Positions 36,542 to 46,551 of a DNA stretch of 64,000 nucleotides are shown piece by piece. Origin of the DNA: Nostoc sp. DedSLP01. GTDB lineage: Bacteria > Cyanobacteriota > Cyanobacteriia > Cyanobacteriales > Nostocaceae. The stretch spans positions 128,001 to 192,000 of the forward strand of contig JAVRCJ020000003.1 in the NCBI GenBank assembly GCA_034530875.2, given 5' to 3'. The notes beneath the pieces are model-generated. The model saw only the letters and a program-made list of their open reading frames with translations. It did no database searches and was not told the DNA's origin. The position numbers and the translations under genes were made by a program. Each line of letters opens with the position of its first letter. Position 1 is the first letter of the stretch.

Positions 36542-38005
36542 ATGACTAACCTAGAATTGCTTGTTAGCGATCTACCAAAATTGATTGGGAATCTCAAGCT
36601 TACTATTGGGGATTCTCATGAAATCATGCAACAAATTATTCCCATTGATAATACTCAAGAAAAGCTGCGCGAAATTCAAAAGTTAATCCTTCAGGAATTA
36701 CAAGTTAACAACATTAAAAATTCTGCGATCGCTACACTTCCTCGAACTGCTACAGTAGCTAGTTTATTTATTCCTAATATTGGATTAATAGAGCCACCCC
36801 TAGCTGCAAAATTTGGTAACTGGGAAACTCATATTTCTTTGAATGATTTACAAAAAAAAATTGATACTTGGATTGAGTGGGGTTATTTTTTGCAAGCTTT
36901 AGCGGCTGATATTCTCAGTGATATTCCCTTAGTCAATCAACTTAACTCTGATATTAACCATGTCAGTCTACCCCACAAATTTCAAGCGCTCAGAGAAGAT
37001 TTAAAAATTAATTTAGCTGTTAACAATCCTAAAAAATTACAATATCAATTTCAAAAAATCAGTATTTATCAGAAAGATTTATTACAAATACAGCAAAAAA
37101 TTGATTGTATTTTTACTACTATTAAAAATAGTCATAGTTTGTTAAATATTTTATTAGGTGTTTCTGCTTTTTGTGGTAAATCTGGGTTTACCTTGGAATG
37201 GTTAGATGATGACCACGAATTAATTATATCAAGCGATGGTAGATTTCAAGAGTTAACAGATATTTTGAATGAATGCGATTTTTTTCAAGAAGAAATTGCT
37301 GCTTTAATCGTTAAATGTGAAACTTTAATCGAGCAAGCAGAACAAATTTTAATAAAACTCGAGCAGCAAAAAACTAAAAAAATAGTTATTAATAATGAAC
37401 AATTAGAATTTTTACCAAAATTTGCCATCAAAAAAAAAGTAAAAACAGCTTTTATCTTAGCTTCAAGTTTAATAGTTTTAGGTTTCGGTAGTTGGAAAGT
37501 TCAACAGCATAGTCAAAAATTACATAATCTTAACCAAGAAACAAGGGCGATCGCCAATTTAAAATCTGCACAAAAACTTGCTACAGAAGCTGCTTCTTTA
37601 GCTCAAAAACCGCCACATTCTCTGCAAGTCTGGCAGCAAGCAGAAACTAAATGGTATCAAGCAATAAACTTATTAAATAGCATTCCTGCTCAAACCTCAG
37701 TTTACGACCAAGCAAAGAATAAATTAACTTACTACCGAATTAACTATGAAGCTATTAGCCAAAGAGTTTTAATTGAAAAAAAAGCAGTCGCCAACCTAGA
37801 ATTAGCCCATAAGCTAGCAATAGAAGCTACTCTGCTTGTACAAAATTCGCCTTATTCAACCAGAACTCGCCAGCAAGCAAAAGAGAAATGGAAAGAAGCA
37901 ATCAATTTATTAGAAGTTATTCCAGAAAATAGCTATGTTTCTATACAAGCTCAAGAAACGCTTTCTATTTATAAAAATATTTATGCAGCTATTAGAGTCA
38001 GATAA
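36542..38005 (+). CDS. Hypothetical single-pass membrane protein with a duplicated C-terminal helical module
   Basis: TM 'TAFILASSLIVLGFGSW'; two repeats of A.KLA.EA..L.Q.PP...Q.A..KW..AINLL..IP. Confidence 0.75.
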   Translation: MTNLELLVSDLPKLIGNLKLTIGDSHEIMQQIIPIDNTQEKLREIQKLILQELQVNNIKNSAIATLPRTATVASLFIPNIGLIEPPLAAKFGNWETHISLNDLQKKIDTWIEWGYFLQALAADILSDIPLVNQLNSDINHVSLPHKFQALREDLKINLAVNNPKKLQYQFQKISIYQKDLLQIQQKIDCIFTTIKNSHSLLNILLGVSAFCGKSGFTLEWLDDDHELIISSDGRFQELTDILNECDFFQEEIAALIVKCETLIEQAEQILIKLEQQKTKKIVINNEQLEFLPKFAIKKKVKTAFILASSLIVLGFGSWKVQQHSQKLHNLNQETRAIANLKSAQKLATEAASLAQKPPHSLQVWQQAETKWYQAINLLNSIPAQTSVYDQAKNKLTYYRINYEAISQRVLIEKKAVANLELAHKLAIEATLLVQNSPYSTRTRQQAKEKWKEAINLLEVIPENSYVSIQAQETLSIYKNIYAAIRVR

Positions 38006-42486: not shown

Positions 42487-43050
42487 ATGTCTGTGCAATT
42501 ACTAAGACGGAAATTCACAGTTGAGCAATATCACAAAATGGTTGATTCGGGGATTCTGAAAGAAGATGACCGAGTGGAATTAATTCGGGGAGACATTATT
42601 GAAATGTCGCCTATTAGTACAAAACATGCTGCTTGTGTCAGGCGATTTAATAATATGTTAGGGCAGCGTTTGGGAAACCGCGTTATACTTTCTGTTCAAA
42701 ATCCCGTAGTTCTGGATAATAACTCAGAACCTCAGCCAGATGTGGCATTACTCAAACCCCGTGATGATTTCTACGCTAATGCACACCCCCAACCCCAGGA
42801 TATTTTTTTATTAATTGAAGTAGCTGATTCAACTATCGAGTATGACCGGGAAGAGAAAATCCCTTTATATGCACAAGCAAACATAATTGAAGTTTGGTTA
42901 GTAGATATTAACGAGAAAATTGTGGAAGTTTATCAACAACCAACAGCCGCAGGATATCAGCTTATGCAAAAGTTCGGTAGCAGTCAAACTTTATCAATTA
43001 AAGCCTTAAGCGATGTGAGTATTACCGTCAATGAAATCCTTGGCAGATAA
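42487..43050 (+). CDS. Uma2-family PD-(D/E)XK endonuclease
   Basis: RVELIRG, EPQPD, LLIEVADST.EYDR..K..LYA, VWLVD. Confidence 0.92.
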   Translation: MSVQLLRRKFTVEQYHKMVDSGILKEDDRVELIRGDIIEMSPISTKHAACVRRFNNMLGQRLGNRVILSVQNPVVLDNNSEPQPDVALLKPRDDFYANAHPQPQDIFLLIEVADSTIEYDREEKIPLYAQANIIEVWLVDINEKIVEVYQQPTAAGYQLMQKFGSSQTLSIKALSDVSITVNEILGR

Positions 43051-43052
43051 AA

Positions 43053-44273
43053 TTACTTCTCCTTTGATTCCTCTCTCATCCCTTCAAAACGCAAAAAATG
43101 CACCCTACCTGATTCTTCTCCTGCCACAATTGTCATGCGATCGGGTGCAACTGCACAGCAATTAATGGAACTTTCGCCTGTGAAGGTGGCAATGACCTCC
43201 ACTGTTGCCAGATTCCAGACTTTGAGGGTGTTGTCATCAGAGGCAGAAATCACCTGTTGCCCATTGGGGGTGACGGCGACGGCATTTACCGAGTAACTAT
43301 GACCATTGAGGGTGAATAGTTCCTCCCCTCTTGCCAGATTCCAGACTTTGAGGGTGTTGTCATCAGAGGCAGAAATCACCTGTTGCCCATTGGGGGTGAC
43401 GGCGATGGCATTTACCCAGTCACTATGACCCTTAAGGGTGAATAGTTCCTCCCCTGTTGCCAGATTCCAGACTTTGAGGGTGTTGTCAGAGGAAGCAGAA
43501 ATCACTTGTTGCCCATTTGGGGTGACGGCGACAGCATTTACCGAGTAACTATGACCCTTAAGGGTGAATAGTTCCTCCCCAGTTGCCAAATTCCAGACTT
43601 TGAGGGTGTGGTCATCGGATGCAGAAATCACCTGTTGCCCATTGGGGGTGATGGCGATGCCTTTTACCCAGTCACTATGACCAGTGAGGGTGAATAGTTC
43701 CTCCCCAGTTGCCAAATTCCAGACTTTGAGGGTGTTGTCAGAGGATGCAGAAATCACCTGTTGACCATTGGGGGTGACAGCGACGGCATTTACCGAGTCA
43801 CTATGACCAGTCAGGGTGCGGAGTAAGCGTCCCCCTGGTGGCGTTAAGCTTGGGGTCAAGGGACGCAGCCAAGCAGTAGCTGTCTTTTGCTTTATCTGTG
43901 TTAATAATGCCTGAATCTCCTCTGATGCTTTCTGATGTAGTAACCTTCCGTATAATTGAGTTGCTAACTGTTGCTTATCTGTTACTAAAATATGCCCTGA
44001 TAGTCTTAATGCTCCTTGAATCAATTTAAGGCTTTTGACTTTTTTAGGGTTATTTAATGCTTCTGCATCATCAATCAAATCATAATCTTCAATTAGCGCC
44101 TGTACCCCAAACTCAGGATGATTAATCTTTGCCGTTAAAAATGCAAAATCAGTCAGCGTTTGATAATATTTTTCTAAATTTCCCGAAATTACCAAATTAT
44201 AAGGAAACCTGCCCAGAAAAGCTTTGCGGGAGTAGGATTTTTTTCCTCTTGATTTCTTCTCAGTCTTCGTCAT
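43053..44273 (-). CDS. Helical (APAF1-C-like) domain plus WD40 repeat protein
   Basis: N-terminal LTDF.FL.AKI...GVQALIEDY...WLRPLTPSLTPPGG; five GH..WN repeats and one divergent terminal blade; ATG 44273 overlaps the upstream gene's 3' end by 14 bp. Confidence 0.92.
   Translation of the reverse strand: MTKTEKKSRGKKSYSRKAFLGRFPYNLVISGNLEKYYQTLTDFAFLTAKINHPEFGVQALIEDYDLIDDAEALNNPKKVKSLKLIQGALRLSGHILVTDKQQLATQLYGRLLHQKASEEIQALLTQIKQKTATAWLRPLTPSLTPPGGRLLRTLTGHSDSVNAVAVTPNGQQVISASSDNTLKVWNLATGEELFTLTGHSDWVKGIAITPNGQQVISASDDHTLKVWNLATGEELFTLKGHSYSVNAVAVTPNGQQVISASSDNTLKVWNLATGEELFTLKGHSDWVNAIAVTPNGQQVISASDDNTLKVWNLARGEELFTLNGHSYSVNAVAVTPNGQQVISASDDNTLKVWNLATVEVIATFTGESSINCCAVAPDRMTIVAGEESGRVHFLRFEGMREESKEK
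43203..43817 (-). repeat. Five near-identical 126-bp intragenic WD40 repeats
   Basis: Recurring TTCCAGACTTTGAGGGTG...GCAGAAATCAC.TGTTG.CCATT at a 126-nt period. Confidence 0.95.
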
Positions 44274-45711
44274 CTTCGTCGTTCTCCCGTTCCCAGTAAT
44301 CAACAATCCGTTGATTCACCTCTTTAATTAGCTGACGCTTTGTATCCAAAATTGGTTTTGATTTGAGAAAATCTAGAAAACTAGCATGGTAGATGCTGTA
44401 ACAAGTGTCTTCATCTATTGTTTGTTGCTTTAAATATTCAAACCACTTATTTAAAATTTGTTGCACCTCATATTCATCTTCCTGGGCAATATCAGCAATC
44501 ATCTCACAAGGAATCGGCGTACCAATTTCTACTAAAATATACAGGATAATCACCATAATTTTATTAGGTGCAGAATCCATCTTCATCCGCACCCAATGAG
44601 TTTGATAATATTGCTGAAGACCATCTGGTAATTGCTTTAAATTAAAATCATTATATTCACCTTTAGCAATTCCCGGTAAGACATACCGCAAGTACATGAA
44701 ATTACTTTCACTTTTTGCCGCTACCTGCTCAACAAAAGCCTCACGGTTGATATTGCGGTCTTGAATCCACTTGAGCAATCCGGCTTTATAATCTACATCA
44801 TCATTGAGAAAAAAGCTAATATATTCTTGAATATCATCACGATTGTCTTTATTATATCGGCTTGCGTTTAAATCTAACTCTACCTGCTCGACACCTTCAG
44901 TATATAATCGCTTTTTACCCGGTTCATAGCGTCGCCTCGTCAGCAAAAAATAAACTTTATCTGGCAGAGTCTTAGGCAAATATAAGATATTTTCTCCCCC
45001 TGGTGCTTGCTCTACTTCATCCAACGCATCAATTACAATTACCAAGGGTTCATTCTTAGGAATTTTGCTACTAGCTTTAATTAACAAAGCTGATAAATCA
45101 TCATTATCGGCATTTTCTAAGTGATAGCGGTTAATTAGCTGCTGACGAATACTTTTGAGAAACAATTCTGGGCGATTGTTTCTTTCTTGCAAAACATTAA
45201 AGTAACAAATGGCTTTATTTTCATCAATATACTTTGCAGCTATAGCACTTTTCCCCATCCCCGCATCCCCGATTACCGTAAAATAACCTTTGGAATATTT
45301 ATTCAAGAAATCTTTAAAAGCATCAAACACAAATTTACGTCCGCAAAACGAGCGAATCTTTTCTTGAATGAGTACTTCAAACTCTGTGGAAATTTTTGAG
45401 GATGTAACAGGGTTAACAACTGGTATATTTTTATTTAATTGATAATAAGTTTCCTTCATATAAGTTCGCAAAATTTCAAATTTTCCTGCTCCTTGCTGCT
45501 TTGTCAGGTCAGGACAGCTAACTTGAAATTTTTTGTAGATACCTGCAAATCTACTTTTGACGGTAGCTTCAGTTATGTTGAGGTCTGAAGCAATCTTTAC
45601 TTGATTAATTTGTGCGTCTTCTTTCGGTAGTGCAGCTAATAAAGTTTCTTTCTGCTCAGGTGACAAACCGTGTCTACCTGCCTCTTGACTCAGAAAATCT
45701 CCCCAATCCAT
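44260..45711 (-). CDS. N-terminal HTH plus NACHT/STAND-type P-loop NTPase
   Basis: HTH-like QVKIASDLNITEATVKSRFAGIYKKF; FCGR; Walker A GDAGMGKS; Walker B VIVIDALDE; LLTRR; C-terminal YSIYHASFLDFL. Confidence 0.87.
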   Translation of the reverse strand: MDWGDFLSQEAGRHGLSPEQKETLLAALPKEDAQINQVKIASDLNITEATVKSRFAGIYKKFQVSCPDLTKQQGAGKFEILRTYMKETYYQLNKNIPVVNPVTSSKISTEFEVLIQEKIRSFCGRKFVFDAFKDFLNKYSKGYFTVIGDAGMGKSAIAAKYIDENKAICYFNVLQERNNRPELFLKSIRQQLINRYHLENADNDDLSALLIKASSKIPKNEPLVIVIDALDEVEQAPGGENILYLPKTLPDKVYFLLTRRRYEPGKKRLYTEGVEQVELDLNASRYNKDNRDDIQEYISFFLNDDVDYKAGLLKWIQDRNINREAFVEQVAAKSESNFMYLRYVLPGIAKGEYNDFNLKQLPDGLQQYYQTHWVRMKMDSAPNKIMVIILYILVEIGTPIPCEMIADIAQEDEYEVQQILNKWFEYLKQQTIDEDTCYSIYHASFLDFLKSKPILDTKRQLIKEVNQRIVDYWERENDEDDED

Positions 45712-45784
45712 TAAAATGCTTCCAAAGTCAATTTAGCAAAAATTATAACCGATTTGTTGCTTTTATTTCATGATTTTACTTATC

Positions 45785-45852
45785 TCTACCTTGAATAGAC
45801 CTTAGTTCTACGTCTCTTATATCTACTTTAATTAGGCCTATATTTATACCTT
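45785..45852. promoter_or_regulatory. Phased direct-repeat array (candidate operator) in the divergent spacer
   Basis: TCTACCTT 45785, TAGACCTT 45796, TCTACGTC 45807, TCTACTTT 45822, TAGGCCTA 45833, TATACCTT 45845. Confidence 0.5.
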
Positions 45853-45942
45853 CATTAAACTTAAGCCTTAAAAAAGAATGACACGATAAAAGTGTGGATA
45901 AAAACTACAAAAAATATTGAATAAAAATCAAGGCAGGTAATT

Positions 45943-46236
45943 ATGGCTGTTAATTCTAGAAATACAACACAAAGAAATCACAACAGTAATAATATGAAAC
46001 AGGAATTGATGCAAGAATTATTACGCCAAGCTAAATTAACGTTTAACCTTGCTTTGAGTGTCACCGCTGCTTCTGCCATGATGACGTTAGGCGGTGTAGG
46101 ATTGCTCTATTTCAACAAAGTTTCTGAAGCCAGTCTCACAGCTGGAGGCGGCGCACTGGCTACTATCACCAGCGTTCAACTCGCCAAGCAAACCAAAGAA
46201 GAATTATTGGAGATTATAGAAAAATCAAATGGTTAA
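45943..46236 (+). CDS. Small 2-TM protein resembling the cyanobacterial TRADD-N-associated membrane domain
   Basis: ELLRQAKLTFNLAL, then two hydrophobic/Gly-Ala segments (GVGLLYFNKVSEASLTAGGG) and a charged tail; family recalled, not searched. Confidence 0.65.
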   Translation: MAVNSRNTTQRNHNSNNMKQELMQELLRQAKLTFNLALSVTAASAMMTLGGVGLLYFNKVSEASLTAGGGALATITSVQLAKQTKEELLEIIEKSNG

Positions 46237-46320
46237 ATTTAGAAAAGATGTAGCGATTATCCCTAAAATAATCTCAAACATGGAACAATTGCCTACCCGT
46301 TTCAACTTCTAAACTCAACT

Positions 46321-46551
46321 TTGACCTTCTGAGGCTCGACGTTGACCTTTTGAGGCTCGACGTTGACCTTCTGAGGCTCGACGTTGACCTTCTGAGGCTC
46401 GACGTTGACCTTCTGAGGCTCAACATTGACCTTCTGAGGCTCGACGTTGACCTTCTGAGGCTCGACGTTGACCTTTTGAGGCTCAACTTTGACCTTCTGA
46501 GGCTCGACGTTGACCTTCTGAGGCTCGACGTTGACCTTCTGAGGTTCAACT
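46321..46551. repeat. 11 tandem copies of a 21-bp unit
   Basis: TTGACCTTCTGAGGCTCGACG x11 with a few recurring variants; no spacers. Confidence 0.97.

Follow-up and report, generated by a model that had tools for sequence, protein, structure and literature searches.

How would an NLR-like protein (nucleotide-binding domain, leucine-rich repeat) pass on its signal if it carried a DNA-binding domain in the slot where relatives carry direct effectors? The question is raised by a three-gene locus at 43053..46236 of the window, by which is meant throughout the whole 64,000 nucleotide stretch analysed, from Nostoc sp. DedSLP01 (GenBank assembly GCA_034530875.2, contig JAVRCJ020000003.1, positions 128,001 to 192,000 of the forward strand). 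There a nucleoside triphosphatase (NTPase) of the STAND type (signal transduction ATPases with numerous domains), headed by a helix-turn-helix (HTH) domain, is followed by a separate gene for a WD40 sensor chain and faces a small gene for a membrane protein. An initial annotation had proposed a two-chain receptor switching on a membrane effector that could kill or isolate one cell of a filament. On balance we favour the view that the locus encodes a two-chain, ligand-gated, local transcription activator of the one adjacent gene. What carries this view is a phased array of seven short repeats in the shared spacer, new here and overlooked in that annotation, the tracking of such arrays with the type of HTH among relatives, and the exchange of HTH, array and membrane gene as a unit.

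The locus and its relatives

43053..44273, minus strand: sensor chain gene, 406 amino acids; APAF1_C-like helical domain (residues 1 to about 145) and about six WD40 units
43196..43818, minus strand: WD40 repeats, near-identical 126-bp units, 4.9 copies, 90% matches
44260..45711, minus strand: STAND NTPase gene, 483 amino acids; N-terminal HTH, nucleotide-binding domain, helical domain, winged helix and last helix, without a sensor of its own
45016..45030, minus strand: Walker B DALDE, residues 228-232, fitting the NACHT signature D[GAS]hDE
45247..45270, minus strand: Walker A GDAGMGKS, residues 148-155
45427..45711, minus strand: LuxR/NarL-like helical HTH domain, residues 1-95 of the NTPase, by fold and a GerE match
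45943..46236, plus strand: membrane protein gene, 97 amino acids, PF20712 (CyanoTRADDas_TM) helical hairpin; presumed target gene

Open reading frame (ORF) coordinates and Pfam matches confirm the layout first described, including the 14 bp by which the NTPase gene (stop codon TGA, 44260-44262) overlaps the sensor gene (ATG, 44273). That ATG is conserved as a start and has a ribosome-site-like GGAG about 11 bases upstream; the alternative start, an upstream TTG at 44306, would make the overlap 47 bp. The NTPase and membrane protein genes stand head-to-head across a spacer of 231 bp.

Relatives of the NTPase occur in 142 of the 301 genomes of the order. The comparison covers 95 distinct loci, given L-numbers below (30 from the genome-survey set, 4 from named relatives, the paralogue on contig C10 of the own genome and 61 more better-scoring matches); it is a survey of the better-scoring matches, and 208 weaker ones lie outside the set. 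L005 and L006 are on contigs C10 and C47 of the own genome, and among named relatives the nearest, at 92% and 95%, come from Nostoc. By hand assignment the N-terminal slot of the 95 loci holds an Xre-type HTH (33), a LuxR-type HTH (16), NNH5 (15), HEPN_Swt1 (7), EAD10 (4) or EAD4 (1), with 16 unassigned, 2 truncated and 1 without any such domain.

An array that follows the type of DNA-binding domain

45785..45862, plus strand: putative operator, seven heptamers near T[AC][TG]AC[CT]T
45879..45887, plus strand: putative extended −10 (TG-n-CACGAT) of the membrane protein gene, by eye in four aligned loci
45742..45771, minus strand: possible sigma-70 promoter of the NTPase operon, a consensus match from a scan at chance level

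The heptamers start at 45785, 45796, 45807, 45822, 45833, 45845 and 45856, at spacings of 11, 11, 15, 11, 12 and 11, and their core is one that we take to resemble the NarL heptamer. Chains of at least three heptamers are found at 16 of 17 LuxR-type loci, the exception being the fused L036, and at none of 33 Xre-type loci, counts tempered by the motif having been read first from the same loci as were scored. Chains of nine and four boxes upstream of two of the 14 NNH5 loci (L005 and L027) are due to a 21-bp tandem repeat and were discounted. Autocorrelation, which uses no motif, gives a peak at lag 11 in the LuxR class alone, and a heptamer matrix whose training left out the own genome and its two closest relatives places the window site top in 8.6 Mb, at 55.9 against 24.1 for the next. 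Scanned for three boxes at 11 bp, the own genome has just two sites, one in the window and one on C47 at the only other gene that carries this HTH; no wider heptamer regulon rises above background in that genome.

The C47 paralogue (L006:5101-7868) carries its LuxR-type HTH on an NB-ARC-TPR body, has three heptamers and faces a small gene for a one-helix membrane protein, with conserved counterparts in relatives L185-L194. Similarly phased arrays recur in other families, before different target genes. Among 19 loci fetched later, seven of the eight from the split family carry six boxes, all seven being from one genus already in the training set, and in the eighth (L173) array and target gene are both missing and the NTPase frame is shorter. 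Of the eleven paralogue-type loci five have three or four boxes, four have two, and L195 and L196 have no array in place and no small gene. Box number is 6-8 in split-family loci against 2-4 for the paralogue with the NB-ARC-TPR body.

Xre-type loci have an operator type of their own, inverted 12-bp repeats 13-15 bases apart, seen at 25 of 33 and at none of the 17 LuxR or 14 NNH5 loci; in L084, L088 and L090 recognition helix and inverted repeat are both changed. Because operator type co-varies with HTH type in this way, DNA binding can be strongly inferred, and the window HTH very probably binds the heptamer array, as far as comparison of sequences can predict it. Other Xre-type partners of PF20712 genes (L039, L042, L044, L049, L050, and L038, L041, L143) have conserved spacers of their own, which are likely to hold further operator types.

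From the last heptamer to the TG of the extended −10 the gap is 16 bases at each of L007, L010, L011 and L058, which puts the −10 at 19 bases and so the last heptamer over the −35 position. Phased direct repeats would thereby reach the −35 of the target promoter, as in activators like MalT and AfsR, given this placing of the −10. The sigma-70 consensus scan returned no promoter for the membrane protein gene and no terminator, its 3 sites comparing with 2.8 expected by chance.

Exchange of a cassette and the link to PF20712

A natural swap is seen at L027, which is of the same genus and has the same GDSL neighbour and the 21-bp repeat. It matches the window from 43169 to 45387 and again from 46300 on, and in between (45388-46300) NNH5 replaces the HTH, the boxes and the membrane gene. 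L009 has a membrane gene 86% identical to that of the window together with an Xre HTH and inverted repeats, and it adjoins gcvP, as does the own NNH5 paralogue. Within one genus the same membrane gene is found under either type of regulator (L018 against L175 and L181). By this sequence comparison the HTH travels with the boxes and the membrane gene, and the three are exchanged together at a syntenic site as one cassette.

A PF20712 gene stands head-to-head at 23 of 49 HTH-led loci and at 0 of 44 others, where a few of the non-HTH loci had less than 700 bases of upstream flank and where the Fisher p of 1.6e-8 is overstated, the loci being kin. The expectation of the initial annotation that the small gene would be conserved beside HTH-NTPase homologues therefore holds in part. 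Taking the standalone PF20712 ORFs as the starting point, 54 of the 74 distinct ones face an HTH-led gene, in a set enriched for the NTPase loci by the way it was collected. The bodies of these HTH-led partners vary (TRADD-N with pentapeptide, NACHT, AAA_16, AAA_35, iSTAND), and so on the sequence record the conserved unit is an HTH-led sensor facing PF20712 and not this NTPase as such. Elsewhere a 1912-aa frame (G250:C1:3336321-3339425) strings together nine tandem domains like the window N-terminal HTH.

Since the arrays track HTH type, the membrane gene is found only beside HTH-led forms and the three parts are swapped as a cassette, a transcriptional output to the divergent gene, as first proposed, appears well supported.

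The NTPase switch and its probable DNA-binding domain

The STAND assignment follows from a P-loop AAA+ core with Walker A and B, a helical domain and a winged helix. In Pfam the NTPase is matched above cut-off by NPHP3_N (E 1.4e-8) and AAA_22. The NACHT profile PF05729 scores 23.6 bits on the window NTPase against a cut-off of 26.7, and several relatives pass. Of the family models that the initial annotation named, CyanoTRADDas_TM is above cut-off on the small protein, and AAA_16, NACHT and APAF1_C are below theirs. G151, G153 and K154 of Walker A are invariant in 44 of 44 aligned sequences. The alignment-based model (predicted local distance difference test, pLDDT, 90.6) has the helical domain as well as a C-terminal winged helix after the core, and its top fold matches are CED-4 and Apaf-1 (E 2e-8 to 1e-7), with plant NLRs also among the matches. 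By analogy with these proteins a nucleotide- and ligand-dependent oligomerisation may be inferred.

The first 95 residues model well (pLDDT 93.7), and their best structural match is NarL on DNA (Z 8.0, root-mean-square deviation 2.2, 64 aligned), then Spo0A, DegU and GerE. Foldseek returns weak rows, nearly all of them HTH or sigma region 4 proteins, and against Pfam the N-terminus alone gives GerE at E 0.0016, under the cut-off. On these models the N-terminus is a LuxR/NarL-like HTH. The full-length MalT model reaches 19.9 bits on the NTPase against a cut-off of 537, and MalT matches are weak throughout; there is no full-length PADLOC/NCBIfam match for the NTPase, and among the Pfam matches no SARP domain (OmpR with BTAD).

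A probable receptor in two chains

The one-chain layout of a bacterial NLR, with effector, NTPase and sensor in line, is not what the locus has, and the receptor was rebuilt as a two-chain model. The split state is found at 90 of the 95 loci, with one fused (L036) and the downstream gene unseen in four; the cut falls at the same domain boundary, after the NTPase winged helix, down to about 32% identity. At L077 and L096 three tandem sensor genes lie behind one NTPase. Prediction of the complex scores 0.68 against 0.00 for the best of three controls; the mark is one that 116 of 157 solved pairs attain, against 2 of 215 mismatched ones, with the caveat that halves of a split gene may pass through likeness to solved Apaf-1-type structures. 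The runs share at least 61% of contacts, with a partner pLDDT of at least 78, and the modelled interface joins NTPase residues 395-476 to sensor residues 12-35, the two sides of the cut. Conservation of the split and the complex model together support the proposal of the initial annotation that the two chains form one receptor.

In the sensor chain six WD40 stretches are recognised by Pfam, and the helical domain alone matches APAF1_C at E 0.003, under the cut-off. The amino acid changes among the window repeats cluster at few positions. At codons of the top face the nonsynonymous proportion (pN) is 0.24 against a synonymous one (pS) of 0.125, and elsewhere 0.056 against 0.20, in a comparison of only 5 repeats with positions picked after inspection; pooled with L001 and L002, pN is below pS. 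Positive selection on the top face is thus suggestive only. Sensor units differ in number and kind among relatives, from about 2 to 21 (commonest about 14, with about 6 in the window), and L002, 94% identical to the window in the NTPase core, has WD40 repeats of another type, 52% identical.

The WD40 gene is often followed by a second related NTPase, of about 340-410 residues and lacking an N-terminal domain: L005:10959-12137 on C10, L067, L069, L072, L075, L076, L078, L080, L081, L084, L086, L088 and L089, and fused to the WD40 gene in L071. The window locus lacks it; since the same genome has a copy elsewhere, it could act in trans.

The membrane protein as presumed output

The 97-aa ORF is a PF20712 member (62.4 bits against a cut-off of 24.3, E 4e-17). 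Members have a hairpin between two charged helices and no invariant residue. The initial annotation called it a two-transmembrane protein; the first helix is a borderline membrane span (19-residue Kyte-Doolittle mean 1.6), and the second helix, at no more than about 0.8, is barely hydrophobic. Among 33 members Phage_holin_3_3 is matched by 2 (best E 0.001) and r1t holin by 2, all marginal, and SLATT by none; one PHROG holin row has E 0.012. PADLOC and NCBIfam give nothing for the protein, an atlas search gave PF20712 clusters only and no structure, and one search for longer PF20712 fusions had none that scored, a separate listing having a few matches in long frames.

The same slot is filled elsewhere by two unrelated one-helix membrane proteins or by an anti-sigma-like HATPase_c_2 protein. 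The HATPase_c_2 gene has captured the PF20712 promoter and first codons in L010-L014, L170-L172, L179 and L182, and a response regulator gene follows it in L011 and L013. One-helix membrane proteins of 50-90 aa occupy the target slot under both HTH types (L019, L022, L025, L026, L032, L071). Given the weak second helix, the marginal holin matches and the unrelated genes in the slot, killing of the cell is one possibility and not a finding. The part of the original proposal that has the protein kill or isolate a cell finds no specific support here. That the membrane protein depolarises or arrests the cell is doubtful, and it may instead be a non-lethal membrane regulator.

Proposed mechanism and alternatives

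In the mechanism that we propose the helical and WD40 chain, translated just after the NTPase, would dock through its first helices on two elements of the NTPase, the winged helix and the last helix, and so would rebuild, in the model, a receptor like Apaf-1 or HET-E. If STAND biology is a guide, the sensor chain would restrain the NTPase at rest until a ligand on the variable propeller face frees it, whereupon ATP-bound subunits would oligomerise. With its LuxR-type HTHs the oligomer would bind the row of seven phased heptamers, whose last member is at the −35 of a weak promoter, and recruit RNA polymerase to the single divergent gene, the small membrane protein being the output. The split would let sensors be swapped or stacked with the switch untouched, and HTH, operator and target would form a second exchangeable cassette, in the slot of the direct effectors. 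That the array serves activation rather than repression seems reasonably probable. As for the trigger, the likeliest candidate is a foreign or infection-related protein, at about even odds; immune-like signs are the HEPN_Swt1, EAD10 and EAD4 domains in the N-terminal slot and the swapped WD40 sensors. Tentatively, filamentous cyanobacteria might hold widespread inducible immune circuits of this kind, built on a two-chain NLR whose switch is fixed and whose WD40 sensors can be swapped or stacked. On detecting an invader protein the NLR would oligomerise and read an operator of phased boxes, whose number may correspond to ring size, and would activate one membrane effector that arrests or isolates the infected cell; HTH, operator and effector would be traded together, as a single cassette, for direct effectors of which HEPN RNases are an example.

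Several observations, besides the limits already given with the counts, weigh against the activator reading or its immune extension. No Foldseek match for the HTH reaches E 0.001 or better and its Z of 8.0 is middling. Avs1b is matched in part only, at 33.8 bits against a cut-off of 1500 and over about 350 of 1931 profile positions (PADLOC/NCBIfam). At 26 of the 49 HTH-led loci there is no PF20712 gene, and 20 of the 74 PF20712 ORFs have no HTH partner by the models used, about 14 of them no candidate at all. The faint second helix and the unrelated genes in the target slot count here too, as do the neighbours from 36 to 53 kb, which look housekeeping by window ORFs and Pfam, with no defence island seen. 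Finally the two closest relatives of the window have about 14-16 WD40 units, and the window sensor copy may be contracted, mis-assembled (a collapsed assembly) or decaying; and one of these two, a 95% identical orthologue (L002:6001-7452), has an in-frame stop in the NTPase after codon 78. Other broken relatives are L024, L035, L079, L124 and L166.

The main rival keeps the circuit and changes its purpose: a host or environmental cue would induce a small, non-lethal membrane protein with a modulating role in development, motility, stress or a membrane complex. This is a real possibility, short of probable. In its favour are the anti-sigma-like and one-helix outputs, the weak second helix and a window without visible defence neighbours, and the characterised STAND activators MalT, GutR and AfsR, in the available part of PMC10936776, are non-immune. 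It fits less well with the HEPN RNase and EAD domains that other members of the family have in this slot, with fast sensor exchange and change of repeat number, or with a patchy presence and frequent breakage across the order.

Improbable, in our estimate, is a repressor that occupies the boxes and keeps a toxic membrane gene silent, in the manner of a toxin-antitoxin pair, until a ligand acts or the NTPase is lost. In its favour, the −35 position lies under the last box, in L175 and L181 8 bases separate the first box from the NTPase start, so that binding could block both genes, and many Xre proteins are repressors. However there is no good −35 under the boxes and the −10 is weak, which is as in activator-dependent promoters such as afsS (PMC10936776, as far as available), and orphan PF20712 genes persist with no regulator, as would not be expected of a de-repressed toxin.

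More improbable still is that the HTH only autoregulates the NTPase operon and that the membrane protein is constitutive and activated by contact with the oligomer. Head-to-head genes share a spacer whose boxes could serve either, but the boxes are fixed at 19 bases from the putative −10 of the membrane gene and lie anywhere from 8 to more than 300 bases from the NTPase start, the outputs in the slot are unrelated, and non-HTH forms never carry the PF20712 gene. Lastly the reading as one NACHT-WD40 gene that broke, with a neighbour there by chance, for which one fused relative (L036) and several broken ones might be cited, is dismissed as a frameshift or pseudogene reading by the split at one boundary in 90 of 95 loci, at identities as low as about 32%, and by the conserved start with its GGAG.

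Relation to known systems

The activator we favour resembles MalT, GutR and AfsR (the last standing for the large Streptomyces antibiotic regulatory proteins, SARPs) in joining an NTPase switch to an HTH, and MalT has a LuxR-type domain. Those are single chains with TPR-type sensors that control metabolism or antibiotic synthesis, whereas here a WD40 chain of its own does the sensing, a LuxR-like HTH stands at the N-terminus, the Walker B is of NACHT type and a single small membrane gene is the target. MalT and GutR require inducer and then ATP, and AfsR binds 11-bp direct repeats that overlap a poor −35 (both in the available part of PMC10936776). Here there are seven boxes against two, and the last ends 19 bases before the −10 against 8 in the AfsR-type promoter described there.

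With bacterial NACHT and Avs receptors the locus shares the D[GAS]hDE motif, a repeat sensor and a swappable N-terminal effector. In the tested examples the three parts form a single chain, whose own effector domain does the killing, and no operator or target is given in the parts of those accounts available. In such a part Kibby et al. list 'transcription regulatory/DNA-binding domains' among predicted bacterial NACHT effectors (10.1101/2022.07.19.500537). The likeness to Apaf-1, CED-4 and HET-E/D lies in the fold matches, in an APAF1_C-like domain followed by WD40, and in near-identical repeats with few variable positions, which are a feature of HET-E; those proteins are single chains signalling by protein contact, whereas here the cut comes between winged helix and second helical domain. 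Apaf-1-like WD40 STANDs have been noted in cyanobacteria, in the portions seen of two accounts (10.64898/2026.01.04.697583; PMC13581612).

Systems of HTH, TRADD-N and pentapeptide also have the PF20712 gene, many copies of which face such genes; here TRADD-N is missing. For TRADD-N proteins the HTH 'points to a transcriptional response' in the available text of Kaur et al. 2021 (PMC8195603; also PMC7159879). Section 9 of that paper, text passages, 12 of its 13 supplements and part of the Figure 3 source data make no mention of the two-helix membrane gene, operators or a split NACHT. The literature searched, thin on subscription papers, gave no account of a split receptor, operators or the target link, though Table S1 of the bNACHT preprint may list the architecture; a search on PF20712 and CyanoTRADDas gave no match. 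Overall the circuit would work like MalT or AfsR with a sensor of the Apaf-1/HET-E type, and is a member of neither family.

A transcriptional output of bacterial NLR-like proteins with immune-type sensors had been predicted from domain lists, with no target or operator named in what is available of those sources. This locus supplies a regulator, a putative operator at base level, a putative promoter and one target, and natural swaps pair two HTH types with two operator types. It lets one ask whether an NLR ring reads a phased DNA array, it has a natural cut site separating switch from sensor, and ligand discovery becomes a simple reporter screen in a filamentous cyanobacterium. The PF20712 family, so far unstudied, gains a context as the usual target of HTH-led sensors.

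Genomic setting

Two RNA runs gave a single flat contig, from a relative of about 94% likeness, across genes and spacer; it is probably DNA and uninformative on expression. Four runs of one study shared about 0.15 of words, and these two were examined further. At 36542-38005 a 487-aa ORF in a low-GC stretch has one hydrophobic segment and helical repeats, and no Pfam family above cut-off.

The 21-bp tandem repeat flanks the locus at 46314..46544 in 11 copies and is found at 7 places in the genome, 2 of them adjoining these NTPase loci (window and C10 paralogue), besides L027; it is probably outside the mechanism and may aid recombination between paralogues. At both own paralogues the WD40 gene has the same Uma2 gene convergent to it (window 42487-43050 and L005:10350-10925), and window and C10 paralogue are 84% identical over 1 kb in the Uma2 region, including the WD40 end, which together suggest exchange between the two loci.

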